From the NCBI GenBank assembly GCA_040387855.1, contig JAZKCY010000001.1, positions 846,922-910,921 on the forward strand: a DNA stretch of 64,000 bases, read 5' to 3'. Every line of letters starts with the position of its first letter. Positions within the stretch are counted from its first letter, which is position 1. Positions 1 to 58,014 of the stretch are shown here, piece after piece. The position numbers were made by a program, and so were the translations under genes. The stretch is from Patescibacteria group bacterium (GTDB lineage Bacteria > Patescibacteriota > Minisyncoccia > Phycocordibacterales > JAKAEA01). Under the pieces are notes generated by a model. The model searched no databases. It saw only the letters and a program-made list of their open reading frames with translations, and was not told where the DNA came from.

Positions 1-775
1 ATTTAATGCTGAAGCGCCGAGTGATGGACCAATGGTTTGGGTTCCTACATGCTCAATAGGAATTGGAAGTGCACCGTTTTTAAGATTATCTACCAAAGCT
101 TTTGCTTCAGCATTTGAAAATCCTCCAGTAATTTGTGCTTCACCATTAGCAATTTCACTTTGAATTACTGGCTGAGAAATAATTTGATCATCTAAAAAGA
201 TCGCGAGTACTCTTCCCAAGTTTTCTCGTGTGATCTTTGCAAAAAGCGTTGAACCTTCATCGTTAAAAACTAGTGATACTGTAGGTCCTCCAAATTGATC
301 GAAGGTAAGCTGTGCTGTTTCAAGATACTGACCTGTAAGCCCAGTATCAGTAAACAATTCACCAATAGTCTTTGTTGTTGTTCCTGCTGTTAAAGCGGCT
401 TCTCCCTCAGCGGTAAGAAGACGGAAATCTAGACGTGGAGTTTTGCCGATAATATTAATTGCCTCCTCTGTATTTGTTACACCTGGCAATTCAACAACAA
501 GCTTTGGCTCATTGTTAAATGCATTTGCACCTTCAAGCTGTACGAGCTGCTCACCCACACCGAAAGGATTAATTCTCTTTTCGATAAGTGTTCGAAGAGA
601 ATTAAGTCGATCATCAAGATCTTCTTTTGGTACGTCTGCAGTATTTGCCTTATAGACAAGCTCGGTACCTCCTGCCAAATCGAGACCAAGTTTGTATGAT
701 GACTTAGTGTATACAACCCACCCCAAAACGACCATAACAACCAATAATATAAGAGCCCAGATGCGGTATTTATTC
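1..775 (-). CDS. secD: Protein-export membrane protein SecD, N-terminal part (gene runs past the window start)
   Basis: My own translation from the ATG at revcomp 773-775 stays open to position 1: MNKYRIWALILLVVMVVLGWVVYTKSSYKLGLDLAGGTELVYKA.... It has an N-terminal TM helix and a periplasmic domain with a SecD-like GLDLxGG motif. It is absent from the ORF track because no stop codon falls inside the window. Confidence 0.55.
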
Positions 776-21622: not shown

Positions 21623-21737
21623 CTTCGTACCGGCGGCTAGCTACTTTCCCCCCAGAAGGGTATCATCGCCTCAACGGGGCTTAACTGCTGTGTTCGGAAT
21701 GAGAACAGGTGTGGCCCCCGCGACAAACCACCAGAAC
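21623..21737 (-). rRNA. rrf: 5S rRNA
   Basis: The reverse complement reads tctggtggtttgtcgcggggg...ccgaacacagcagttaagccccgttgaggcgatgatacccttctggggggaaagtagctagccgccggtacgaag, which has the canonical 5S helices and the CCGAAC...GTTAAGC core. Confidence 0.85.
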
Positions 21738-22149
21738 GAAACATTCAATGTACTACTTTCAAATTTAATCAATTGAAAGCTCTAAAGTGGGCGCGGCTAC
21801 CAGGAAGTGGGGGACCTGAACAACAAGCCGGCCACTTTATTACTGGAAGACCACGCTTCGCTCCGAAGAGCTAAAGAACATGATCCACTTTGGAACTTTC
21901 AATTACAAGAGCTTTTACAAACAACAATACTTACTGTTCATGGAACCCCTCGATTTCACTCGGGGTAAAAATTCCATGTAACAGGATAAAATCAAGATTT
22001 TGCAATTTAAATTGCGGTGCTTCATACATTTCCTAATAAGGATCGATTAATTAGTACATCTCGGCTCAACACATTACTGTGCGTACACCTAATGCCTATA
22101 TACGTAATCATCTCTTACGAATCTCAAACGATTTCTAATCTTGGAGTAT

Positions 22150-22180
<31 letters not shown>

Positions 22181-22336
22181 ATTTCCCGACATAGCTACTC
22201 TGCGATGCCCTTGGCAGGACAGCAGATAGACCAGAGGTCAGTTCAACTCGGTCCTCTCGTACTAGAGTCAAATCTCCTCAAAAATCAACGCCTGCAGCAG
22301 ATAGGAGACCAACCTGTCTCACGCATATTTGTCACA

Positions 22337-22662
22337 CATCACTGTGTGTATTGGACTATAGCTTCATCCCCTTTTTAAAGAAGGACTACTGACGATTAGT
22401 CTCTACGGGCTCTAGATTTCTCTAAATTCCCTCGGTATAGCCTTGATCATCAATCAAGATTCCACCGAAATTAGTCAGTTTGATTCATAAATATTTCTAT
22501 TCATGACCGCCGTGATTAGTATACTTCTGTATACTGGTTAGTTTCATATCTTGCGAATAGGTTACTCACCTATTCGACTTTGTTAAACGAAAAAACACTT
22601 TAATGTTTTCTTCCTCTGTTGGGGTTCAGACGGTTCAAGAGACAACTCACGTTATCTACTGA
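22337..22662 (-). other. Intervening sequence 1 in 23S rRNA (about 326 nt, ORF-less), a putative group I intron at E. coli position about 2585-2593
   Basis: The exon sequence ...GGTTCAGACCGT | CGTGAGACAGGTTGGTCTCCTATCTG... matches E. coli GGTTTAGAACGTCGTGAGACAGTTCGGTCCCTATCTG. It is interrupted by 326 nt that are absent from canonical 23S. The upstream exon ends in T and the insert ends in G. Confidence 0.6.
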
Positions 22663-23325
22663 ACGGTCTGAACCCAGCTCGCGTATCTTTTTAAATGGCG
22701 AACAGCCATACCCTTGGAAGCTTCTCCACCTCCAGGATAAGATGAGCCGACATCGAGGTGCCGAACACTACCGTCGCTCTGGACGCTTAGGTAGTACCAG
22801 CCTGTTATCCCTAGAGTAGCTTTTATCCGATAATCTCCGGCCGCATCTAATGCGAACCGTCGGTTCACTTTGTCCCGCTTTCGCGCCTGTTCGACAAGTA
22901 CGTCTTACAGTCAAGCAAGCTTATGCCAATACACTATCGCCACGGTTTCCATTCGCGGCTAGCTTACCTTAATGAACTCCTCCGTTACTTTTTAGGAGGA
23001 TAGCGCCCCACTAAAACTGCCCACCAGATACTGTCTCTCATCGTTTTTGCCGTTGAGGTTAGAGTGTACATCTATAAAGAATGGTATTTCACTGACGACT
23101 CCACCATCCCCGAGAGGATAGCTTCAAAGTCTCCCATCTATGCTACGCAGTAACAACGTACACGCAATATCAAGTTGCAGTAAAGCTTCTAGGGTCTTTT
23201 CGTCTAGCTGCAGGTAACCGGCATCTTCACCGGTATTGTATTTTCACCGGGCGAGTCCCCGAGACAGTTGCTCAGTCATTACACCATTCGTGCGCGTCAG
23301 AACTTACCTGACAAGGAATTTCGCT

Positions 23326-23573
<248 letters not shown>

Positions 23574-24995
23574 CAGGGCTTATATCAGTCAGCAATTAAA
23601 TCTTGCGATCCAATCACCGCCAATATTTGACCTTCTGGCATTGGTCAGGTGTCACCCCCTATACATCCTCTTTCGAGTTCGCAGGGAGCTGTGTTTTTGG
23701 TAAACAGTTGCCAAGCATACTTTAGCTGCGGCCTACTTGCGTAGGCAAGCCTTATCCCGAAGTTACGGCTGCTTTTTTGCCGAGTTCCTTGGGGACCTCT
23801 CACCCGTTCGTCTTGGTCTACTCGACCTGATCACCTGTGTCGGTTTGCGGTACGGTTTTCATAGTGATAATTTTAGGGGTTTTTCTTGGGAGCGTGCTTT
23901 CAAGACTTAGCTTGGGTTGCCCCTTGCATCGTCGCTTCATTTCCAGTCGCCATTGAAGGCAGAGTTCCGGATTTACCTAGAACTCCCAGTTAAGACACGA
24001 ACATCAATCCAATAAGATGATCTTGATACTACACCCCGTCCTCCCATCAAACACTATAAAAGTCATGGAATATTAACCATGTGTCCATCGGATGCGGCGT
24101 TTGCCATCTCCTTAGGCCCGACTAACCCTTCGCTGATTGTCATCGCGAAGGAAACCTTGATCTTTCGACGTGTATGGTTTTCACATACATTGTGGTTACT
24201 TGTGCCAACATTCTTACTTCGCAACGCTCCAGTATGGGTCACCCCTTTACCTTCATCGCTGATGCGAATACTCTCCTACCAGTATAACTATTCGAAAATA
24301 ATTATAATCCTCAGTTTCGGTACTACGCTTAGCCCCGATTATCTTCGGTGCGGAAACTCTCGATGAGTGAGCTGTTACGCTTTCTTTAAAGGATGGCTGC
24401 TTCTAAGCCAACCTCCTCATTGTCTGAGAGTTTCCACTTCCTTGAGTGCACTTAGCGTAAATTTAGGGACCTTAAATAGAGATCCGGGCTGTTTCCCTTT
24501 TGACCAATGGAGCTTAGCCCCCACAGTCTAACTGCCATGTTCTTGATCTTTGGTATTCGGAGTTTGATAGGTCTCGCGAGATTTCTCCCTGTCGAGACCT
24601 TCCAGTGCTCTACCCCCAAAGGGAACACATGACGCTAGCCCAAAAGCTATTTCGGAGAGAACCAGCTATTACCAGGCTCGGTTAGCTTTTCACTTCTTAC
24701 CACAAGTCATCCCAAGATGTTGAACGGTCTACGGGTTCGGGCCTCCATTGTTCTTTCGAACAACTTCACCCTGCTCATGGCAAGCTCGCTCTGGTTTCGG
24801 GTCTGATGCATACTACTTATTCGCGCTATTCACACTCGGTTTCCCTAGGACTCCAAGCTCTCGCTCTTAGTCATGCAGCATGCATCAACTCGTTGGCTCA
24901 TTCTTCAATAGGCACGCCGTGACGGATGCTTGCGCACCCGCTCCGACTCCTTGTAGGCATATGGTTTCAGGTCTATTTCACTGTCCTCACCGGAC

Positions 24996-25037
<42 letters not shown>

Positions 25038-25839
25038 TCTGAAAATATTTAGCCTTACCGGTTAGTTCCGGCAGATTCCTCCGAGCCATTCGTGTCTCGA
25101 AGTACTCAAGAATGACAACAAAAAAGATAATTCATTTTAACGTACGGGGCCATTACCCTCTAGGGCGCTGCTTTCCAACAGCTTGCGCTAATGAATCATT
25201 TTGTAACTTTTCTTGCTTAAAAAGCAACGTTATCACCTTACAACCCCCAGTCGTCAACTTAGAAGAGAATTGCTTCCCCACTAAGTTGAAGACTGAGTTT
25301 GGGCTTCTACGCTTTCGCTCGCCGCTACTTACGTAATACTTATTAGTTTCTTTTCCTCTAGGTACTGAAATGTTTTACTTCCCTAGGTATGCTCTAAATG
25401 CGTCAAGCGCATTAGTCTCAACTTATAGTTGAGGGGTTTCCCCATTCGGAAATCTTCGGATCGACTGTTGCCAGGCACATCCCCGAAGCTTATCGCAGCC
25501 ATGCCACGTCCTTCATCGCTTTTCAGAGCCAAGGCATCCACCATATGCCCTTACATTCCCTATTAGGAAATGTAAGAACCACAATCTTGTTTTATCCTGT
25601 TACATGTAATCTTTCGATTTCAGTAACAAGTTTTAATGTATTGTTTACCTGTTTAATCACTATTGCCCTACAAGACAATAGTGAAGTTTTTGTTCTGATG
25701 ATGTTCTTATCAAACATCACCAGAGCTCTTGCCTGTCCTCACCACCCGAAAAGACCCATATGCACTCCTGCACGTAAGTTCTTTAGTGATGGAACAGAAT
25801 TAAATTTTCAAATGACTTATTCGGACTTATATTCTTAAC

Positions 25840-25864: not shown

Positions 25865-26036
25865 TAGATACACTCTATTGCTAGGGCTTATCTATATCCG
25901 ATTAAGATTTCTTGTTAACAACATAATTTCAGTAGTGATGCCTATTATACACACCGAGAAAATAGAGTCAAGAGATTATTTAAAACAAATGAAACACCTA
26001 TATAAATCAAGCTAAGATTAGTATTTAAAGACGAAT

Positions 26037-26062
26037 GAAGCCGCACTGTTTGGTGCGGCTTC
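26037..26062. terminator. Perfect 10-bp hairpin at the left edge of the GC-rich island (possible terminator or boundary element)
   Basis: gaagccgcac tgtttg gtgcggcttc. On the plus strand it is followed by a T-rich tract. Confidence 0.3.
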
Positions 26063-26152
26063 GTGCTCATTTTATTATTCGGTAGTAGCACACCGGGCGA
26101 ATTTCTTCGCGAAAGATCAAATGTGACTCAGTTCAGGACCTCAGACGTCAGG

Positions 26153-27001
26153 TCAGCCCTTCGCCGACGGCCCAGCATGTCCGTCTTCGGGGGCGACCAC
26201 ACGGGTCGGGTCCGGGGACTCCCAGGCGTAGCTGTCGATGGGTTTCCCGTCGGTACCCGTGGGAACCCAGTCGGCCGGAGCGCGGAGGCCGTAGAGGCTG
26301 CTACCCAAGGCCTCGAGGTCGATCGGCTCATCACTTTCGTGCGTGACGTCGAGCAGCAACCCCTGACCGTCACCGACAGCGTCGGGATAGGGATCGTGGG
26401 TAATGCTCACGACCCTCAGGCTGGTCACTCGCATCCCGGTAACCGCGGAGTTGTCCGGGACCGGAATGGATACCCCAGCGAACCGCTGATCATCCTCGTC
26501 GCGCTTCGAGAAGGCCATGACGATGAGAAACCGCATGAGCGATCCTCCCGTCAAAATCTCCTCTTGGTACAGCGCATACGCCACGGCCATCAGGATGCCG
26601 ATGATGCTCGGCAGTAGCGACACCAATGCTTCCCCGAGGACGATTGCGTAGATCCCGCTGACGAGTGCAAACGCCGAGCCAAGAAGCGCAAACCACCAGC
26701 AGATGAAGACTCCGACCTCGTCGTCCGACGTGCCGTTCTCGATCTCCGTAGCCACCGCCTTGATGATCTTCATCCAGACGATGATCACGAGGAACAGGAA
26801 CAGCGAATCGAACCACCGCGAGAGGTTGATCACCGTCCCGGCCGAAACCAGGGAGAGATCAAACGACATGCGGTAGGCCTCGATCGGCACCTCCGACTGG
26901 TTGGCCCAGTACACCAGGCTCACGCTAAGCGCGAACAGCGCCCAGACAGAAGCCGGAAGCGACCAGAGGAACGACACGGTAGAAAAAAAGATTCGAGACA
27001 T
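26153..27001 (-). CDS. Island ORF 1: polytopic membrane protein with a C-terminal acidic soluble domain (282 aa), function unknown
   Basis: High-GC ORF. About 5 TM helices in the first roughly 170 aa, then a D/E/P-rich soluble tail. RBS is tcAAGGAcggtttacaATG. The overlapping ORFs in other frames look like R/G/P-rich high-GC artefacts. Confidence 0.55.
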   Translation of the reverse strand: MSRIFFSTVSFLWSLPASVWALFALSVSLVYWANQSEVPIEAYRMSFDLSLVSAGTVINLSRWFDSLFLFLVIIVWMKIIKAVATEIENGTSDDEVGVFICWWFALLGSAFALVSGIYAIVLGEALVSLLPSIIGILMAVAYALYQEEILTGGSLMRFLIVMAFSKRDEDDQRFAGVSIPVPDNSAVTGMRVTSLRVVSITHDPYPDAVGDGQGLLLDVTHESDEPIDLEALGSSLYGLRAPADWVPTGTDGKPIDSYAWESPDPTRVVAPEDGHAGPSAKG

Positions 27002-27065
27002 TGTAAACCGTCCTTGATTGAGAACTAATGGATACTAAACCGAACGATTCGGCCTATATCCACGC

Positions 27066-27102
27066 TGTGTATATATTACCATATTTTATACATAAAGTCA
27101 AA
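27066..27102 (-). promoter_or_regulatory. Near-consensus sigma70 promoter for island ORF 1 (TTGACT-17-TGgTAATAT)
   Basis: Minus strand: tTTGACTttatgtataaaatatggTAATATatac. -35 lies at revcomp 27096-27101 and -10 at revcomp 27073-27078. Confidence 0.5.
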
Positions 27103-27103
27103 T

Positions 27104-27136
27104 AAAAAAGACCCCACACAACTATGTCGTGCGGGG
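27104..27136 (-). terminator. Rho-independent terminator of island ORF 2
   Basis: Minus strand: ccccgcacgacatagttgtgtgggg followed by TCTTTTTT. One G.T wobble in an 8-bp stem. Confidence 0.5.
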
Positions 27137-27216
27137 CCCTTGCATTTCGAGAACGGTGGAAAATGCTCACCGATAAAGATCAAATCTCATGACGCTACGC
27201 TACTATGCCCTGTCAA

Positions 27217-27759
27217 TCAGGCCGGCCGCATGATCACGTGCATCGCGCGGCGCTTGAGGGCCTTCAAGAAAATCTTGGGCTTCATGACCGCAGCCCGGAG
27301 GCGCGGCATCTTGCAGTCCACGTAGTGGATGACCAAGCAGCAGACGCCGAGAATGATCAGTCCAATCCCCCCGAAGAACGCCATGCTCACGCCTTGGCCG
27401 GCGAGCGTCCCGAACCCCATGAAGAGGAAGGAGACCATGCCGATCCACACGTATACCTGGTCGTAGCTGAACGACTTGCCCCAGAGCATGCGGCGCCCGT
27501 AGGTGTCGTGGCCGGCGGCGTCCTTCTCCTTGCGGAGGGTCATGCCGTAGCAGAACGACCAGTGGCCGATGAACGCCATCAACCCGAGGGTAATGAGGTC
27601 CACGAACCGGGGGCCGTTGACCGCCTCCATGAAGAAGCGGCTCGGCCGGGCGTTGTTCCAGAGCCACGGCGTGCCGAAGGTCAGGATCACGAGCCCCCAG
27701 ATGCTGGCGATCGCGAGCGTGACCAGGAGAGCGAACACGTAGGACTTGATGCGGAACAT
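27217..27759 (-). CDS. Island ORF 2: four-TM membrane protein with a basic C-terminal tail (~181 aa), function unknown
   Basis: The ORF track gives 27217..27840, but the likely start is the internal ATG (revcomp 27757-27759), which is preceded by tcAAGGAcggttcccATG. The sequence is MFRIKSYVFALLVTLAIASIWGLVIL.... Confidence 0.55.
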   Translation of the reverse strand: MFRIKSYVFALLVTLAIASIWGLVILTFGTPWLWNNARPSRFFMEAVNGPRFVDLITLGLMAFIGHWSFCYGMTLRKEKDAAGHDTYGRRMLWGKSFSYDQVYVWIGMVSFLFMGFGTLAGQGVSMAFFGGIGLIILGVCCLVIHYVDCKMPRLRAAVMKPKIFLKALKRRAMHVIMRPA

Positions 27760-27829
27760 GGGAACCGTCCTTGAAATGAGAGCTGACGTGCATACGACCG
27801 GACTGTCCGGCAATAACACATCCTGGGTA

Positions 27830-27858
27830 TATGATATCATATTTATACAAATTTGTCA
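27830..27858 (-). promoter_or_regulatory. Near-consensus sigma70 promoter for island ORF 2 (TTGACA-17-TGaTATCAT), divergent partner of the ORF 3 promoter
   Basis: Minus strand: TTGACAaatttgtataaatatgaTATCAT. -35 lies at revcomp 27853-27858. Confidence 0.5.
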
Positions 27859-27867
27859 AATATATTA

Positions 27868-27895
27868 TTTGACTTTATTTATTTATATGATATAA
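27868..27895 (+). promoter_or_regulatory. Near-consensus sigma70 promoter for island ORF 3 (TTGACT-16-TGaTATAAT)
   Basis: TTGACTttatttatttatatgaTATAAT. -35 is at 27868-27873 and -10 at 27890-27895, with an extended TG. Confidence 0.55.
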
Positions 27896-27994
27896 TACAT
27901 ACTAAGGAAAAGCGTTCGGTTACTCTCGGTCTCCGGGAGCGACGCTAATCCAAGACTCCTGTTACCTGCGAATTTCGCAGGAGGAGAAGGTATC

Positions 27995-28471
27995 GTGATT
28001 GGAATGATCCAGAGCACGCTTCGTCAGTTCGCCCTCACCAGCAACGATCCCAGCCTCGACCTCACCCAGAGGCGGCAGGGGTGGCAGCCCAGCTGGATGT
28101 GGGTGCGGATGGGTGACCTTGTGCAGGCGGTGAACAGCGCCCACCCCGAGCTCTCTCCCTTCGACCAGAAGATCTGGACCGGCAAGGAGCTCGGAAACAC
28201 GTTTGCCGAGATCAACCGGATCCAGACCTTCTGGTTTGTCATGGAGGGCTACAAGGAGCCCCAGTACGAGAACATCGTCCGCGGCATCCCGCCCAGGAAC
28301 ATCCCGTTCGACCAGCTGGAGCTCTTCGTCCCCGCAGTCTGGGCCGAGCAGGTCTTCGCGATCACCCGCAAGGGCATCACGGCGATCCTGTGGATGAGCA
28401 ACAAGCCCTACGGTCAACGCGGAACGAACATCGTCGCCATCGACGAGATTCTCAAGGCCGCCGCGGCCTAA
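27995..28471 (+). CDS. Island ORF 3: hypothetical cytoplasmic protein (158 aa)
   Basis: GTG start 9 nt downstream of GGAGG. The SD is partly sequestered in the perfect hairpin cctgcgaa-t-ttcgcagg (27965-27981). No recognisable domain. Confidence 0.55.
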   Translation: MIGMIQSTLRQFALTSNDPSLDLTQRRQGWQPSWMWVRMGDLVQAVNSAHPELSPFDQKIWTGKELGNTFAEINRIQTFWFVMEGYKEPQYENIVRGIPPRNIPFDQLELFVPAVWAEQVFAITRKGITAILWMSNKPYGQRGTNIVAIDEILKAAAA

Positions 28472-28510
28472 AATAATGTACCCCGACAATTCACCGGGAA
28501 TGTGAATTAA

Positions 28511-28562
28511 GAACCCCGAGCCCCGGAGCCTGCGAAAGCACGCCCCGGGGTTCACTATTTTA
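28511..28562 (+). terminator. Rho-independent terminator of island ORF 3
   Basis: gaaccccg...ccggggttc forms an 8-bp GC-rich stem with an internal loop, followed by ACTATTTTAT. Confidence 0.5.
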
Positions 28563-28576
28563 TACAAACCCATAGT

Positions 28577-28604
28577 TTGACTTTCTGTATTTTTATGATA
28601 TAAT
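28577..28604 (+). promoter_or_regulatory. Near-consensus sigma70 promoter for island ORF 4 (TTGACT-16-TGaTATAAT)
   Basis: TTGACTttctgtatttttatgaTATAAT, the same architecture as the ORF 3 promoter. The 5' UTR contains the 12-bp perfect palindrome CCACACGTGTGG (28641-28652). Confidence 0.55.
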
Positions 28605-28691
28605 TAGCACAGACATACAAAGGGTTCGAGTAGTGGTGATCCACACGTGTGGTCCCTATTTTAATCCAATGTATACCTGGGAGATCCTGAT

Positions 28692-29156
28692 ATGTTGAAC
28701 ACTTTAATGAGCCGTGCGGCAGCGTACATCAACACGATGCCCGAAGGCTCCAGCACGCGCAACCGTGCGTCGGCAGCGTTCGCACTGGCACAAGCGATCG
28801 CACTCTCCATGGCTCAACGCGAGCCGCGGGAGTCGAAGTTCGTGATGTTCACGAACCAGCAGCTCCAGCGCGCGTTCGATGTCCTCCGGCACTACAACGT
28901 GGAGACAGTCACCGACCACGAGTGCCTGGAGCCGGCGATCAAGATGTTGGCCTGGGCATTCATCCAGACCGCCAACGGCTTCGGTGAGAACATCGAGCGC
29001 GACATCAAGCTCGTGTTCATCGAAGGTGATCACTACAACGTCATCCACGAGGACACGCTCCACCGCGCGTTGACCTGCATCCGTGAAGGAGCAAAGTCGA
29101 TCGTAGCCGGAATCCCGGAGCTGGCCGGTGTGATGCACCCCGAATCCACAGTCTGA
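28692..29156 (+). CDS. Island ORF 4: hypothetical cytoplasmic protein (154 aa)
   Basis: ATG preceded by GGGAG at -8. High-GC codon usage. No recognisable domain. Confidence 0.55.
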   Translation: MLNTLMSRAAAYINTMPEGSSTRNRASAAFALAQAIALSMAQREPRESKFVMFTNQQLQRAFDVLRHYNVETVTDHECLEPAIKMLAWAFIQTANGFGENIERDIKLVFIEGDHYNVIHEDTLHRALTCIREGAKSIVAGIPELAGVMHPESTV

Positions 29157-29200
29157 AAGTACATGCCCATCTTCGCAGGCATATAGAAAAGCGAACAACC

Positions 29201-29250
29201 GAGCCCCGACACCAGAGACTTACATCTGGTGCCGGGGCTCTTACGTTTTA
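29201..29250 (+). terminator. Rho-independent terminator of island ORF 4
   Basis: gagccccgacaccag agacttacat ctggtgccggggctc forms a 15-bp stem with one mismatch, followed by TTACGTTTTAG. Confidence 0.55.
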
Positions 29251-29261
29251 GTAATCTACAA

Positions 29262-29307
29262 AATTTTATATAAAAAATGGTCAGGTCTCCCGGAGGAAAC
29301 CTGACCA
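29262..29307 (-). terminator. Rho-independent terminator of island ORF 5
   Basis: Minus strand: tggtcaggt ttcctccgggag acctgacca (perfect 9-bp stem) followed by TTTTTTATATAAAATTTT. It starts 5 nt after the stop codon. Confidence 0.6.
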
Positions 29308-29311
29308 TGTC

Positions 29312-29683
29312 TCACATGGCCTTCGGCCAGTTGGGACAACTCAACTTGTACATTCTCTTCTCCACTGCATCAATGTGATGCCAGTAGCACTTGAGGCATA
29401 CTGGACATTGCTTGATGATACAGCCAGAATCGGCTGTCCTATCCCCGCTTCGAGGAGGACAACACGTGGAGTAGCCTACTACATCTTCAAATCGTCCGAG
29501 ACTGTCTGTCAGCACGAAGCTACATCCCCGCTTAGCGCAGCGGTACTCACCGTGCGCAATCCGAGGACTCCACTGCACGCCCCACGAATCGTCGGTTGGC
29601 TTTGGAGCAGCACCCGAGCTCGTCATCTCAATCACCACCGGTACTAGCACTTGAAGTACCGCGGTTCCCACAATCTTTTCCAT
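29312..29683 (-). CDS. Island ORF 5: small Cys-rich protein (~124 aa; 10 Cys, zinc-ribbon/knottin-like pattern) with a hydrophobic N-terminus
   Basis: The ORF track gives 29312..29737, but the likely start is the ATG at revcomp 29681-29683 (MEKIVGTAVLQVLVPVVIE...). The AGGA of the SD sits in the loop of a perfect 8-bp hairpin, catacgaaAGGAttcgtatg. Cys clusters are CAKRGC, CCPP, CIIKQCPVCLKC and SCPNW. Confidence 0.5.
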   Translation of the reverse strand: MEKIVGTAVLQVLVPVVIEMTSSGAAPKPTDDSWGVQWSPRIAHGEYRCAKRGCSFVLTDSLGRFEDVVGYSTCCPPRSGDRTADSGCIIKQCPVCLKCYWHHIDAVEKRMYKLSCPNWPKAM

Positions 29684-29762
29684 ACGAATCCTTTCGTATG
29701 AATGCCTGAGGTTTAAGAACAGAAGTCCCGCCGACACATGCCGGCGGGATTGCCCGTTGGAT

Positions 29763-29790
29763 ATAATAGAATAAATACTAGTTTTGTCAA
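29763..29790 (-). promoter_or_regulatory. Near-consensus sigma70 promoter for island ORF 5 (TTGACA-16-TATTAT)
   Basis: Minus strand: TTGACAaaactagtatttattcTATTAT. It is followed in the 5' UTR by the GC hairpin cccgccg...cggcggg (29722-29743). Confidence 0.5.
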
Positions 29791-29808
29791 CGGATATCTC
29801 GTCGGGAT

Positions 29809-53905: not shown

Positions 53906-54496
53906 CTAGAGCTGTGTTTCGCGAATAGAACTGTTGATTGCGTTGAGAGCTATTTTTTTCTTATCGATCATCTCTGTTAATAAATCTTTACTCCAAACGC
54001 TAGAAAGAAACTGCACAAGTTCTGCCTGTGAACTCATATATCCAAGTTCTTTTAAGATTCTGAGTACTAAAATTCTTTCAAAAGCCTTTATTTCTTCTTC
54101 AAACAATTCTTGCTGTTCCAAAAATTCAAAGCTTTGTTGCAACATAACGAATAACTCTTCATCCTTTTGCTCTCCTGGAATAAATCTTTTTAAAAGTGAA
54201 AAAACATGAGCAAACACAAGAATTATATTTTTCTTATCAAGATATGTATGATAATAATTTTCTTCAGCCTTAGCATTTGTTATACGCCAAATATCTTTAC
54301 CACGTACAATAGAAACTCGCGCTAATGATAAGTCTTGTAATGCTGCTTTTAATTTAGATTTAGAAAGTCGCACACCTTGAGCCGTAGCACGGACCATTCC
54401 CAAATCTTTGGTAAATACCCAATATACGCGGTTGGCTTCACCAGAGGGCTGGCTATCTAAAATAAATCCAAGTGTAGTATAAACATGATGAGCCAT
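53906..54496 (-). CDS. recO: DNA repair protein RecO (short form)
   Basis: The N-terminal OB-fold region ...YTTLGFILDSQPSGEANRVYWVFTKDLGMVRATAQGVR... matches the RecO N-terminus. Its start overlaps the ileS stop by 1 nt. Confidence 0.6.
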   Translation of the reverse strand: MAHHVYTTLGFILDSQPSGEANRVYWVFTKDLGMVRATAQGVRLSKSKLKAALQDLSLARVSIVRGKDIWRITNAKAEENYYHTYLDKKNIILVFAHVFSLLKRFIPGEQKDEELFVMLQQSFEFLEQQELFEEEIKAFERILVLRILKELGYMSSQAELVQFLSSVWSKDLLTEMIDKKKIALNAINSSIRETQL

Positions 54497-57400
54497 TATT
54501 TCTGAAGCGAAAGTTTGAATGTAAGATCCTCGATCTTTAATTCTTCACCTTCTACTTCAGAAAATACGACGTCGCGTACCTGAGCAACTTTCATTATGTC
54601 TGATTTAAATTTTTCTATTATAGATTTCCCCGTGTCTGATGTATCTACTGTAAGGGTCACAAAGTCGTGTGGATTTAATCCTGCGTTCTTTCGAGCTTCT
54701 TGTAGTGCTCGCATAAAATCTCGAGCTAAACCTTCTTCTTTAAGTTCTGGAGTAATTGTTGTATCAAGATTTAATTCATCCCCAAATATCACTTCTTTCA
54801 CATTTAATTCATCAGCAATTATTTGTTTGAATTGTTGATTATCTACTAATGATTTTTCTGCAATTGTAAGTTTTGAGAGAGGCTGACGCACTTTAACTCC
54901 TGCTTTTGATCTTACCTCTAGAGCTGTAGAAACAAGATTTCTCACTTCTTGCATCTGCACAATAACGTTTTGATTAATTACGTTACTTCCCGGCCATGAT
55001 TCTAAATGCACACTTTCTTTACCATCTGTTCCCTTCACTTTCTGATAGATGTCCTCTGCTAGGAACGGCATAAAAGGCGCTACAAGCTTCGACAGCTCAC
55101 GCAAAACATACTGAGTGGTATAGAGAGCATTTTCTTTATCTTGTGCGTCGTCGCCCTTAAATCGGTCACGAGAACGGCGGAGATACCATGTTGAAAGATC
55201 ATCGACAAATTGCATAAATGGTCGAGCTGCACGATCGAGCTTATAGCTTTCAAGATTTGTCGTCACTTCCTGAGACACTTCATTAAGTCGAGCTAGAATC
55301 CATTGATCTAATACATTAGTTGTAGAATTTCCTGTACCTGTGTAGTCACGTTCGTAGGTAGCAAAAAATGAGTACACATTTTGAAGGCGCATCAATACTT
55401 TCTTTGAAATTTCATCAACACCCTTTTCTGTAAAAGCTAAATCTTCTGCACGTACTGCAGGTGATGCAAGTAAATAGTAACGCATTGCGTCAGCCCCGTA
55501 CTTATCGAAAATATAACTAACTTCAGGGTAGTTCTTGAGTCTCTTCGACATTTTCTGGCCATCCTCTGCTAGCACAATTCCGTTTACAATTACATTCTTA
55601 TATGGAGCTTTTCCAAACAAAGCTACTGAGAGCACCAATAATGAATAAAACCATCCTCGAGTCTGATCTTGGCCTTCAGCAATAAAATCAGCCGGGAATC
55701 GTTTACCAGAATCTATAAGCTCTTTATTTTCAAATGGATAGTGAAGCTGACCATACGGCATTGATCCTGATTCATACCACGTATCAAATACTTCAGGCAC
55801 TCGCTTAAATGTTCCTCCACAGTCGCAGGCAAATGCTACTTCGTCGATAAATGGTCGATGGAGATCTATTTGATACGCTCTATTATGTGGAAGCTGCGCA
55901 AAATCTAAGGGTGATTCTTGACCTGGTGTAAGAAAGTTGCGATCCATTCCCCATAGTTCAATAATCTTTTCATCATGTCCTCCTTCAGCCACCGCAAAGA
56001 GCATAGTTGCAGGACCATCATGTGTTACAAGTAAAATGTTTTTACCTTCATATTTTGCATCAATGTCATAGATAAAATCACCAATGCGTGCTCGTACATC
56101 AGTGAGATTTTCACCTCCAGGTAGTGACTTTGTAAGTCGTTCTTTTACAGAGCCAAAGTACCGATGATATTCTTCAACAGTTTTACCGTTGTAATCTCCA
56201 AAATTAAATTCTTGGATTCGATCATCGGAAAGTCGTTCTCCTTTAAATGCAATTGTTTCAGTAACGACATCGGCTGTCTCTTGAGTACGTACGCATGGTG
56301 ATGCGATTATGATATCTATATTTTTATCTTTAAGCGCTTCTGCTGAAAGTTGTGCTTGTTCTCTACCATGATCAGTAAGATGGTGTGGAAATTTTGGATC
56401 GCAGCTCAAAATATTGGCTACATTGTGATCAGCCTCTCCATGTCTCATCACAAAATAGGTGTTGCGCTTTGTTTTCTTTTTAAGATCAGATAGTGATCCC
56501 ATTACTTCAGTTTTTCCACATTCTTTACAGATCCATACCGGAAGTGGCGCGCCCCAATAGCGAGATCGTGAAATTGCCCAATCACGAGCATTTTCAAGCC
56601 ATTTTCCAAAGCGGTTTTCTCCAATTTCTGGTGGCACCCAGGTTACCTTTTTATTTTCTTCTACGAGTTTATCTTTAAATTCAGTGACTTTTACAAACCA
56701 TGAGCTAGAAGCATAGTTTAGAAGTGGTGTATCACATCGCCAACAATGTGGGTATGAGTGAATAAGCTTTTCTTTTGCAAAAAGTGTTCCCTTTCCAGCT
56801 AAATATTTTATAACTTCGATATCCGCCTTTTGATGAGCTATAGGATCCTCTTTTGTTGCTTTTGCTTTAACTTTTGTGCCAGCAAAATCTGTTACTTCTT
56901 TTTTAAAAGTCCCGTCAGTGTTTACATGCTGAATGAAAGGTAAATTTTCTTTAACAGACAAAAGATAGTCATCTTCTCCAAACGCTGGAGCAATATGCAC
57001 AACTCCTGTTCCATCTGTTGTAGTTACAAATTCCCCTCCTACTATTTTCCATGCATTTTCTTTGTTCTTAAGATCTGCGTTTACGTAATAATCAAATACA
57101 GGCTTATATGTTTTTCCTAGCAAATCAGCGCCTAAAAATTCAGAAACTATTTCTGGATTCTTACTCTTGAATTTATCTTTAGATTTTTCTAATAAATCTT
57201 TTGCAAATATATAGTGAGTTTTACTATTTGATTCAGGATCAGTATCTTTTACTTTTACATAGGTTACATCTGGCTTTACTGCAAGTGCTGCGTTTCCTGG
57301 AAGTGTCCATGGAGTTGTTGTCCAAGCCACCACAAATGTACCTGGTTCATCTACAAGTTCAAACTTTGCATACACAGAAATATCTGTGATGTCTTTATAT

Positions 57401-58014
57401 CCCTGTGTTACTTCAAAGTTTGAAAGTGTTGTCTCACAATGAGGACACAGCGACATTGATTTAAATCCTTGATAGATCAGGTTTTTATCATGCAACGTTT
57501 TGAAAGACCACCAGATAGATTCAGAATACTTCCAATCCATAGTCTTATAGGCATTCTCCATGTCGATGAAGCGGCCTGTTCGAGGAATTATTGCTTTCCA
57601 TTCATGATCATACCGGAGCACACTTTCACGAGCTTTATCATTAAACTTTTCTATTCCCAATTCTTCAATATCTTTTTTACTCTTAAGACCTAATTCTTTT
57701 TCAACTAAGTTTTCGATTGGAAGTCCATGCGTATCCCATCCCCATCGTCGAGGTACATGAAAGCCATTCATAGTTTTATACCGAGGAATCACATCCTTCA
57801 TTGTTCCAGGTAAAATGTGACCATAGTGAGGAGCACCTGTAGCAAAAGGAGGACCATCAAAAAACATATAATTACCTTGTGGAGAATCTTTCTCTAATGT
57901 TTTTTCAAAGATGTTGTTTGCTTGCCAAAACGCAAGAAGCTCTTCTTCTCGTTGTACTAAAGCACTTTTTTCCGGCATTACTGCTGGTTTTTGAGGTTGT
58001 TCTTTATCAGCCAT
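54496..58014 (-). CDS. ileS: Isoleucyl-tRNA synthetase, eukaryote/archaeal type, carrying an inserted histidine-phosphatase (PGAM-like) domain
   Basis: DGPPFATGAPHYGHIL (the type-2 IleRS HIGH motif), WRCDTP, YWGAPLPVWICKECG, EVFDTWYESGSMPY and KMSKRLKNYP are all present. Between the Zn/CP segment and the DTWY motif, residues about 515-715 contain RHGE...HDG, the histidine phosphatase signature. Confidence 0.9.
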   Translation of the reverse strand: MADKEQPQKPAVMPEKSALVQREEELLAFWQANNIFEKTLEKDSPQGNYMFFDGPPFATGAPHYGHILPGTMKDVIPRYKTMNGFHVPRRWGWDTHGLPIENLVEKELGLKSKKDIEELGIEKFNDKARESVLRYDHEWKAIIPRTGRFIDMENAYKTMDWKYSESIWWSFKTLHDKNLIYQGFKSMSLCPHCETTLSNFEVTQGYKDITDISVYAKFELVDEPGTFVVAWTTTPWTLPGNAALAVKPDVTYVKVKDTDPESNSKTHYIFAKDLLEKSKDKFKSKNPEIVSEFLGADLLGKTYKPVFDYYVNADLKNKENAWKIVGGEFVTTTDGTGVVHIAPAFGEDDYLLSVKENLPFIQHVNTDGTFKKEVTDFAGTKVKAKATKEDPIAHQKADIEVIKYLAGKGTLFAKEKLIHSYPHCWRCDTPLLNYASSSWFVKVTEFKDKLVEENKKVTWVPPEIGENRFGKWLENARDWAISRSRYWGAPLPVWICKECGKTEVMGSLSDLKKKTKRNTYFVMRHGEADHNVANILSCDPKFPHHLTDHGREQAQLSAEALKDKNIDIIIASPCVRTQETADVVTETIAFKGERLSDDRIQEFNFGDYNGKTVEEYHRYFGSVKERLTKSLPGGENLTDVRARIGDFIYDIDAKYEGKNILLVTHDGPATMLFAVAEGGHDEKIIELWGMDRNFLTPGQESPLDFAQLPHNRAYQIDLHRPFIDEVAFACDCGGTFKRVPEVFDTWYESGSMPYGQLHYPFENKELIDSGKRFPADFIAEGQDQTRGWFYSLLVLSVALFGKAPYKNVIVNGIVLAEDGQKMSKRLKNYPEVSYIFDKYGADAMRYYLLASPAVRAEDLAFTEKGVDEISKKVLMRLQNVYSFFATYERDYTGTGNSTTNVLDQWILARLNEVSQEVTTNLESYKLDRAARPFMQFVDDLSTWYLRRSRDRFKGDDAQDKENALYTTQYVLRELSKLVAPFMPFLAEDIYQKVKGTDGKESVHLESWPGSNVINQNVIVQMQEVRNLVSTALEVRSKAGVKVRQPLSKLTIAEKSLVDNQQFKQIIADELNVKEVIFGDELNLDTTITPELKEEGLARDFMRALQEARKNAGLNPHDFVTLTVDTSDTGKSIIEKFKSDIMKVAQVRDVVFSEVEGEELKIEDLTFKLSLQK

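Follow-up and report, generated by a model that had tools for sequence, protein, structure and literature searches.

The chloroplast of Chlamydomonas carries the Cr.LSU/I-CreI intron after U2593 of its large subunit rRNA, the same site that is occupied at the locus described here. In bacteria of the CPR clade, group I introns in 23S rRNA genes were reportedly first noted by Brown et al. in 2015. A total of 968 insertions have been described in CPR 23S rRNA genes, 45% of which are group I introns (Tsurumaki et al., 2024, J Bacteriol, PMC11270868). The CPR group I introns cluster at sites 1917, 1931, 1952, 2593, 2604 and 2657, often together with LAGLIDADG_1 genes, and according to the same paper the transcripts lose the CPR rRNA insertions (PMC11270868). 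L2593 introns are also known from the cyanobacteria Synechococcus sp. C9, S. lividus C1 and Thermosynechococcus elongatus, where they measure 744-748 nt, carry a LAGLIDADG gene and display an extension of approximately 65 nt, P7.1/P7.2 (Haugen et al., 2007, PMC1995217).

The window analysed here, a stretch of 64,000 nt from a Patescibacteria/CPR metagenome-assembled genome, contains a 23S rRNA gene on the minus strand that matches the Rfam LSU_rRNA_bacteria model with 2298.5 bits from model position 1 to 2925 (25564..22033), with a 5S rRNA gene downstream (21735..21628, Rfam). Using E. coli MG1655 rrlH as the reference for MAFFT alignment and for numbering, three large insertions were found in this gene, after E. 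coli positions 2593, 1931 and 291. The first one comprises 339 nt directly after U2593 (22662..22324), and in the structure-aware Rfam LSU alignment, likewise, 343 nt stand in place of 4 model positions within the hairpin loop of GGGUUcAGaaCGUC...GACAGuuCGGUC. This hairpin is helix 93, which lies at the peptidyl-transferase centre, beside A2602. On the minus strand the insert is flanked by ...GGGUUCAGACCGU on its 5' side and CGUGAGACAGGUUGG... on its 3' side; the last base of the 5' exon is U (22663) and that of the intron is G (22324), and since the adjoining bases are different (U/G and U/C), neither boundary can be shifted. An earlier sequence-only reading of this DNA had recognised the insert as extra to the canonical 23S rRNA, had quoted both flanks exactly, and had pointed to the exon T before the insert and the G at its end, all of which is borne out here; the alignment to E. 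coli 23S that it suggested is the one that places the insertion after U2593. Its coordinates, 22337-22662, are right at the high end and 13 nt off at the low end, so that the length is 339 nt and not 326 nt.

The surroundings of the insert show some further features. The 213-nt insertion after E. coli position 1931 (23538..23326) is an L1931 intron, the second intron of the same 23S rRNA gene, and the insertion after position 291 measures 87 nt (MAFFT). Directly upstream of the gene lies a compositionally foreign, GC-rich island of 3.7 kb, which gave no Pfam, PHROG, phage or plasmid match; a search of 5.8 billion clusters with one of its proteins yielded no relative. The isoleucyl-tRNA synthetase (IleRS) encoded at 54496-58014 is 100% identical to a protein from a Patescibacteria MAG and has its relatives in Paceibacterota, and the assignment of the host to the CPR is based on this homology search.

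Searching the 64-kb window with the Rfam Intron_gpI model (RF00028), the check that the earlier reading had proposed, gave a match of 51.8 bits on the minus strand (22549..22332, model positions 1-253). The score surpasses the gathering score of 50 by only 1.8 bits, and with E = 2.9e-10 in the 64-kb window the match is not due to chance. The insert is a CPR 23S group I intron at L2593 in its ORF-less form, that is, a known kind of element at a known hot spot. As a whole, the locus is very probably best explained as a complete group I intron that has no homing-endonuclease gene, is located after U2593, and binds its exons through an internal guide and a long helix with the 5' exon, which we call the exon clamp. 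The coordinates of these features are given in Table 1.

Table 1. Features of the L2593 intron and its host gene. Intron nucleotides are counted from the 5' splice site; window positions refer to the forward strand.
Feature	Intron nt	Window position	Strand	Remarks
Host 23S rRNA gene		22033..25564	-	3532 nt vs 2925 model positions (~600 nt extra)
L2593 group I intron	1-339	22324..22662	-	339 nt; nt 1 = 22662, nt 339 = 22324
5' exon -13..-1 (GGGUUCAGACCGU), clamp 5' strand		22663..22675	-	Last 6 nt, GACCGU, are the P1 5' strand
Intron 5' end	1-23	22640..22662	-	nt 1-4 (UCAG) extend the clamp; MFE fold
Clamp 3' strand (UUGAACCGUCUGAACCC)	25-41	22622..22638	-	Pairs with exon -13..-1 and nt 1-4
Peripheral hairpins in the P1 loop	53-74, 86-109, 128-145	22518..22610	-	Lineage-specific; MFE fold
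Internal guide, UCACG-GCGGUC	148-158	22505..22515	-	Sequence
P2 hairpin, AUGAAUA-GAAA-UAUUUAU, GNRA loop	159-176	22487..22504	-	MFE fold
P3 5' strand, ACUGAC	184-189	22474..22479	-	Pairs with 22388-22393
P4-P5-P6 domain		22407..22468	-	Rfam alignment
P4, UCGGUG with UAUACCGA	195-200 with 224-231		-	100% paired in 18 sequences
P5, CUUGAUU..AUCAAG	205-221		-	3 covarying pairs in 18 sequences
P6, GGG..CCC, inner GAAA-capped stem	232-256		-	1 covarying pair in 18 sequences
P7 5' strand, G-A(bulge)-GACUA	260-266	22397..22403	-	Carries the predicted G-binding G-C pair
P3 3' strand, GUCAGU	270-275	22388..22393	-	Closes the P3/P7 pseudoknot
P8 hairpin	277-297	22366..22386	-	5/5 pairs with compensatory changes in 18 sequences
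P7 3' strand, UAUAGUCC	303-310	22353..22360	-	Rfam alignment
P9 hairpin, CACACA-GUGA-UGUGUG, GNRA loop	315-330	22333..22348	-	5/6 pairs compensatory
Terminal guanosine (omega G), last intron nucleotide	339	22324	-	Sequence and MAFFT/Rfam LSU boundary
3' exon +1..+5, CGUGA		22319..22323	-	Pairs with the P10 guide strand; sequence

Relatives of the intron were searched for in one genome per species of bacteria and archaea, with a pattern that demands the P7 3' strand within 8-38 nt of the G/CGTGAGACAG junction. The search yielded at least 120 loci, from which 79 clean L2593 inserts, the window intron included, were analysed. Among the matches listed, these inserts are 213-840 nt long, and their hosts are mostly Patescibacteria (Saccharibacteria, Parcubacteria/Paceibacterota, Nomurabacteria, Jorgensenbacteria and others), the remainder belonging to Acidimicrobiaceae, Chloroflexota, Omnitrophota and others. 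The closest relative among them displays 69% identity by BLAST, and only from intron nucleotide 128 on. Nucleotides 1-127 show no BLAST similarity to the relatives, and conservation in this part is structural only.

To assess the catalytic core, we aligned 18 ORF-less members (17 relatives and the window intron) from the guide to the 3' exon. From this alignment RNAalifold recovered P10, P3, P4, P5, P6, P8 and P9. When the full structure with the P7 pseudoknot is considered, 96.6% of the cells of its 40 pairs are paired, compared with 33-41% in a control in which the partners were slid by 1-3 columns; 20 of the 40 pairs show changes on both sides, and none of 500 shuffles reached the observed values. 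The covarying core helices are P3, with compensatory changes at all six of its pairs, P5, P8 and P9. P7 is fully paired (100%) and invariant in the 18 sequences, its 3' strand having been fixed by the search pattern; because the pattern fixed them, the invariance of this strand, of the terminal G and of the 3' exon carries no weight. The P7 5' strand agrees with the Rfam consensus AGACUAAA, and the predicted guanosine-binding site, the G-C pair of P7 beside the bulged A, corresponds to that of the family consensus. P2 is missing from the RNAalifold structure, since the alignment is ragged in that region; its assignment is based on single-sequence folds and on visual inspection of the alignment, in which the relatives visibly have an equivalent hairpin whose loop is G(N)AA. 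Three nucleotides separate P7 from the P3 3' strand, and P8 starts 1 nt after the latter, which leaves no room for a P7.1/P7.2 extension.

None of the six reading frames of the intron contains an ORF of more than 33 codons, and a tblastn search with the endonucleases of its siblings gave no match in the intron or elsewhere in the 64-kb window. Five clamp-bearing siblings (L054, L063, L106, L108 and L121) do have open frames, of 149-182 codons, located between P2 and P7. Along its entire length, the product of L063 matches both I-MsoI and I-CreI (E = 1e-34 to 1e-20), and the products of L063 and L121 match Pfam LAGLIDADG_1. The claim that the insert lies at an I-CreI-type homing site is thus correct, given that ORF-bearing siblings at L2593 encode enzymes of the I-CreI/I-MsoI LAGLIDADG kind. 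The sequence-only reading was equally right in calling the insert ORF-less and in considering a small group I intron, and its proposal of a CPR-type rRNA insertion agrees with the host and with the recurrent site 2593. The term degenerate, which it had also used, does not suit an intron in which every core element is present (P1 to P10, the predicted G-binding P7 and the terminal G).

The internal guide lies far from the 5' splice site. Its first part, UCACG (nt 148-152), is complementary to the 3' exon CGUGA and makes up the P10 strand; its second part, GCGGUC (nt 153-158), is complementary to the 5' exon GACCGU and makes up the P1 strand, with a wobble between G153 and U-1. Together, UCACGGCGGUC is the reverse complement of the ligated exons GACCGU-CGUGA, save for the G opposite U-1. 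The resulting geometry is a 6-bp P1 topped by the U.G pair, a contiguous 5-bp P10, and P2 following without a spacer, and the P1 loop, in formal terms, consists of the 147 nt that separate the guide from the splice site. The G.U/omega-G convention pointed out in the earlier reading is therefore present, with the difference that the U.G partner sits 153 nt into the intron instead of close to the 5' end. Of the 39 clamp-bearing relatives among the matches listed, 37 retain NCACGGCGG, which was not required by the search pattern; the P10 pairing CACG/CGUG is found in all 18 aligned sequences. Given that both exons are nearly invariant, P1 and P10 are beyond a covariation test. The guide does not follow the G/A polymorphism at exon position -6, so the conserved P1 comprises 4-5 bp.

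A second candidate for the guide, the 5'-proximal complement UUGUCUC..ACCGUCUGAACCC, was considered as a combined P10 and P1 strand and was rejected: it would place an A opposite U-1, its presumed P10 strand folds into a GUGA-capped hairpin instead, and the canonical guide is present at nt 148-158.

The exon clamp is formed by the 5' exon and the first 41 nt of the intron. It measures approximately 23 bp when its apical hairpin is included (nt 6-23, AGAUAAC-GUGA-GUUGUCU, with a GNRA loop in the MFE fold), and it pairs A29 with U-1 and leaves C31 opposite exon C-3 as a conserved mismatch. Using RNAduplex, an energy of -25.6 kcal/mol was obtained for the clamp duplex, compared with -13.9 +/- 2.2 kcal/mol for 1000 dinucleotide shuffles, the lowest of which reached -23.2. 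Among the matches listed, 39 of the 79 L2593 introns analysed have the clamp, and all of them come from CPR or unnamed bins save L106, which is labelled Bathyarchaeia. In these 39 introns the pairing tracks the exon polymorphisms without exception: exon -8 and its partner are C-G in 36 and U-A in 3, and exon -6 and its partner are G-C in 28 and A-U in 11. Intron positions +1, +2, +4 and +5 also covary with their clamp partners. Clamp and P1 either exclude each other or form a pseudoknot, and both compete for exon -6..-1, where the guide gives the stabler duplex in 36 of 37 introns among the matches listed (mean energies of -6.4 kcal/mol for the guide and -1.2 kcal/mol for the clamp strand). 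At the splice site the clamp is weak and the guide is the better binder, and we infer that the long helix holds the exon as a clamp and then passes the splice site on to the guide.

An alternative reading takes this long helix as the catalytic P1 itself, with a U-A pair at the splice site, and leaves to UCACGGCGGUC only the alignment of the exons for the second step or some other role. The helix would be a far stabler P1 than the 6-bp one, it stands in the usual place of P1, as a hairpin at the start of the intron that encloses the splice site, its covariation is strong, and in 5 of 39 relatives among the matches listed the base opposite U-1 is a G. We consider this reading unlikely, however, given that in the other 34 of these 39 U-1 is paired with A, where U.G is expected, and that C-3 is left unpaired, as a mismatch, in 34 of 39 as well. 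Nearly all group I introns are known to require a U.G wobble at the 5' splice site. The downstream guide offers precisely this pair together with a contiguous P10, and abuts P2, as in Tetrahymena. Moreover, the relatives that lack the clamp use a GCGG/GCGU guide, and the Rfam model places the 3' strand of its first helix on GGCGGUCA.

Returning to the reading in which the guide forms P1 and the long helix is a clamp, splicing of the insert is probable from its sequence features and may proceed as follows. The clamp would form first, co-transcriptionally, as soon as nt 41 has been made, capturing exon -13..-1 and keeping the 5' exon away from ribosome assembly and tethered past the first step. 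Once the core has folded, the weak centre of the clamp (the C-3 mismatch and the U-1:A pair) would be displaced by the guide, which from more than 100 nt downstream would supply the catalytic U.G and produce the active P1. An external guanosine would then cut after U2593, the freed 5' exon would attack after the terminal G, and ligation of the exons would restore the conserved helix 93 sequence ACCGU-CGUGAGACAG. The distal 8-9 bp of the clamp may persist, tethering the exon through both steps. What is observed are the pairings and the fact that they are conserved; in which order the events occur, and whether the clamp brings any benefit, is conjecture. The 13-17-nt exon complement could also direct ORF-less copies, by reverse splicing, into 23S rRNA that lacks the intron. 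As for the I-CreI-like gene, it may have been lost from the intron or may never have been present in it; lacking an endonuclease gene, the intron would persist by vertical descent or by homing in trans.

Two further alternatives deny that the insert splices itself. In the first, it would be retained in the mature 23S rRNA, either as an expansion segment or as an unspliced intron. A precedent exists in Simkania, for which an unspliced group I intron in a bacterial 23S rRNA is reported (reference 28 in PMC11270868). The removal of CPR rRNA insertions from transcripts described in the same paper speaks against retention at the present locus (PMC11270868). A retained insert would split the loop of helix 93 beside A2602, in the peptidyl-transferase centre, and a covarying ribozyme core and a guide kept under selection across 18-39 lineages would be pointless in a spacer, which makes retention highly improbable.

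In the second, the insert would be an intervening sequence of the RNase III type, with an inactive ribozyme, that host RNases excise leaving the 23S rRNA fragmented and unligated. Fragmented 23S rRNAs are common in bacteria, and the helix at the 5' junction, with its approximately 23 bp, has sufficient length for RNase III to act on it. Known intervening sequences of this type occur at the tips of helices 9, 25 and 45 and have two ends that pair with each other; the present insert is located in the loop of helix 93, and its ends are unpaired with each other in the MFE fold. The long helix includes 13 nt of essential exon, so that a cut by RNase III would harm the rRNA itself. Ribozyme function is likewise favoured by the intact core and guide, and excision of this kind has very little probability in our view. 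A decaying relic in a non-functional or chimeric copy of the rRNA gene, or an assembly artefact, might be suspected in a metagenome-assembled genome that has a foreign-composition 3.7-kb island directly upstream of the gene, but is hardly credible at a locus where the 23S rRNA fits the bacterial model end to end and is followed by the 5S, where the L1931 and L2593 introns lie at exact canonical sites and their removal restores the conserved exon sequence, where the same pair of introns recurs in other CPR genomes, and where the host contig, of 981,549 bp, suggests a near-complete genome in a clade that typically has a single rRNA operon.

The main value of the complete intron described here is one of annotation: two introns are to be stripped from this 23S rRNA gene before phylogeny, primer design or ribosome modelling, and one ORF-less example is added to the known CPR hot spot at 2593. 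Only the clamp helix is potentially instructive beyond that. If functional, it would show how a ribozyme with a very short P1 secures its 5' exon in a folding rRNA precursor. We found no published description of such a helix, and it is possible, if rather doubtful, that the clamp and the distant guide constitute an undescribed module of a CPR-wide intron subfamily, namely a bipartite binder of the 5' exon with a built-in conformational switch.

Compared with the CPR introns of Tsurumaki et al. (2024, PMC11270868), the present one is alike in clade, gene, site 2593, L1931 partner and the Rfam model used for its detection, and differs in that the window copy has no ORF. The internal guide sequence is not mentioned in that study (PMC11270868), and therefore the exon clamp and its distant guide are absent there. 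With the cyanobacterial L2593 introns and with Cr.LSU it shares the site, and the endonucleases of its siblings are homologous to I-CreI. In contrast to the cyanobacterial introns, which are of the IA-type subgroup, it has neither P7.1/P7.2 nor an ORF, which implies a different structural lineage at the same site.

The core shares several features with the Tetrahymena type (IC1-like) as represented by the RF00028 consensus: P7 consists of AGACUA and UAUAGUC with a bulged A, J8/7 carries the GAAGCUAUAGUC motif, the exon part of P1 measures 6 bp with a G.U on top, and P10 lies directly 5' of the P1 guide. Unlike the Tetrahymena-type core, it has no P5abc and no P2.1, and it bears a 147-nt insertion in the P1 loop. 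In the Tetrahymena pre-rRNA, Woodson and Cech reportedly described P(-1), an exon-only alternative helix that inhibits splicing. The clamp is like P(-1) in being an alternative pairing of the nucleotides at the 5' splice site that competes with P1, and unlike it in using an intron-encoded strand as the competitor, one that covaries with the exon and that many lineages have conserved.

Finally, a functional analogy, and no more than that, exists with the extended guide sequences of engineered trans-splicing group I ribozymes, for example those from Azoarcus and Tetrahymena, which provide an extra duplex by a short P1, past an unpaired or weak stretch, and add substrate-binding energy (PMC3895272). 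The engineered guides are artificial, are placed at the 5' end of the ribozyme and bind the other side of the splice site (PMC3895272), whereas the window clamp is a natural, cis-acting element whose target is the 5' exon upstream of P1. Should the clamp be functional, it would constitute a natural counterpart of these extended guides.

The 23S rRNA gene carries a second ORF-less group I intron, inserted after E. coli U1931 (L1931). Its junctions read exon GGU / intron ...UGAUG / exon AGCGAAAUUCC, and with the Rfam Intron_gpI model it scores 28.6 bits (E = 2e-4), short of the 50-bit gathering threshold. Among the loci listed from our P7 and 3'-splice-site pattern scan, four from other CPR bacteria (L037, L046, L072 and L097) have homologous inserts of 220-278 nt at this position, the L037 insert being 71% identical to the intron described here, and an alignment of five sequences displays compensatory changes in these L1931 inserts.

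The gene also has additional domain I sequence, which forms two hairpin expansions in the Rfam alignment. Approximately 29 nt equivalent to E. coli positions 1715-1743 and 17 nt equivalent to 2780-2796 are missing. The 23S gene is linked to the 5S gene, neither a 16S gene nor any tRNA gene was found in the whole 64-kb window, and the rRNA operon is split.

Features of the window discussed here, with positions in window coordinates
Feature	Position	Strand	Details
Linked 23S and 5S	21628-25564		
L1931 group I intron, ORF-less	23326-23538	minus	213 nt, after E. coli U1931
Extra 23S domain I sequence	25192-25278		87 nt after E. coli 291; MAFFT
Promoter / repeat segments	27831-27896, 28577-28604, 29763-29790, 25944-25971		
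Compositional island	about 26050-29800		directly upstream of 23S gene; GC 0.55-0.65 vs 0.37 in remaining window
Island ORF	26153-27001	minus	
Island ORF	27217-27840	minus	
Island ORF	27995-28471	plus	
Island ORF	28692-29156	plus	
Isoleucyl-tRNA synthetase	54496-58014	minus	Pfam His_Phos_1 at aa 521-683

The four ORFs of the GC-rich island display GC3 values of 0.80-0.89, against about 0.3 for the neighbouring genes, and two of them look like membrane proteins. Pfam and PHROG searches with the island ORFs returned zero matches, no phage or plasmid DNA resembling the island was matched, and the 158-aa product retrieved only itself among 5.8 billion protein clusters. The island may have a foreign origin, may represent an unusual cassette specific to this lineage, or may result from a chimeric assembly. 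In the AT-rich spacers that separate its GC-rich ORFs there are predicted sigma-70-type promoters close to the consensus (TTGACT-16-TATAAT, 11 of 12 matches). Two of these promoters lie inside a 40-nt repeat whose copies at 27857-27896 and 28565-28604 are 80% identical. The rRNA is probably transcribed from a similar predicted promoter, situated approximately 380 nt before the 5' end of the 23S gene.

Elsewhere in the window, the isoleucyl-tRNA synthetase harbors a histidine-phosphatase domain as an insertion inside its catalytic domain, an architecture found in nearly all of the 120 CPR relatives listed.

The RefSeq record NZ_AP027616.1 (scan locus L001; 2911 bp), which bears an E. coli plasmid label, is made up almost wholly of a single 23S rRNA gene, and the sequence at the 5' terminus of E. 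coli 23S is missing from it. The record is likely to represent contamination or a wrongly circularised contig. The 4.7-kb contig DATEAU010000060.1 (scan locus L106), assigned to a 'Candidatus Bathyarchaeia archaeon' bin, contains a CPR-like L2593 intron with the clamp helix (the long pairing of the 5' exon and intron start with intron nt 25-41) and a LAGLIDADG ORF, and was probably mis-binned.

Among the loci listed, L2593 group I introns are present in non-CPR MAGs too, namely from Acidimicrobiaceae, Actinomycetota, Omnitrophota and Chloroflexota; the loci concerned are L007, L008, L023, L028, L033, L041, L043, L048, L058, L070, L073, L096, L110, L112 and others. These non-CPR introns have no clamp helix, and their guide, the internal sequence that pairs with the exons, is GCGUCC or GCGUUCUA, lies at most about 20 nt from the 5' splice site and covaries with the exon variant GAACGU.
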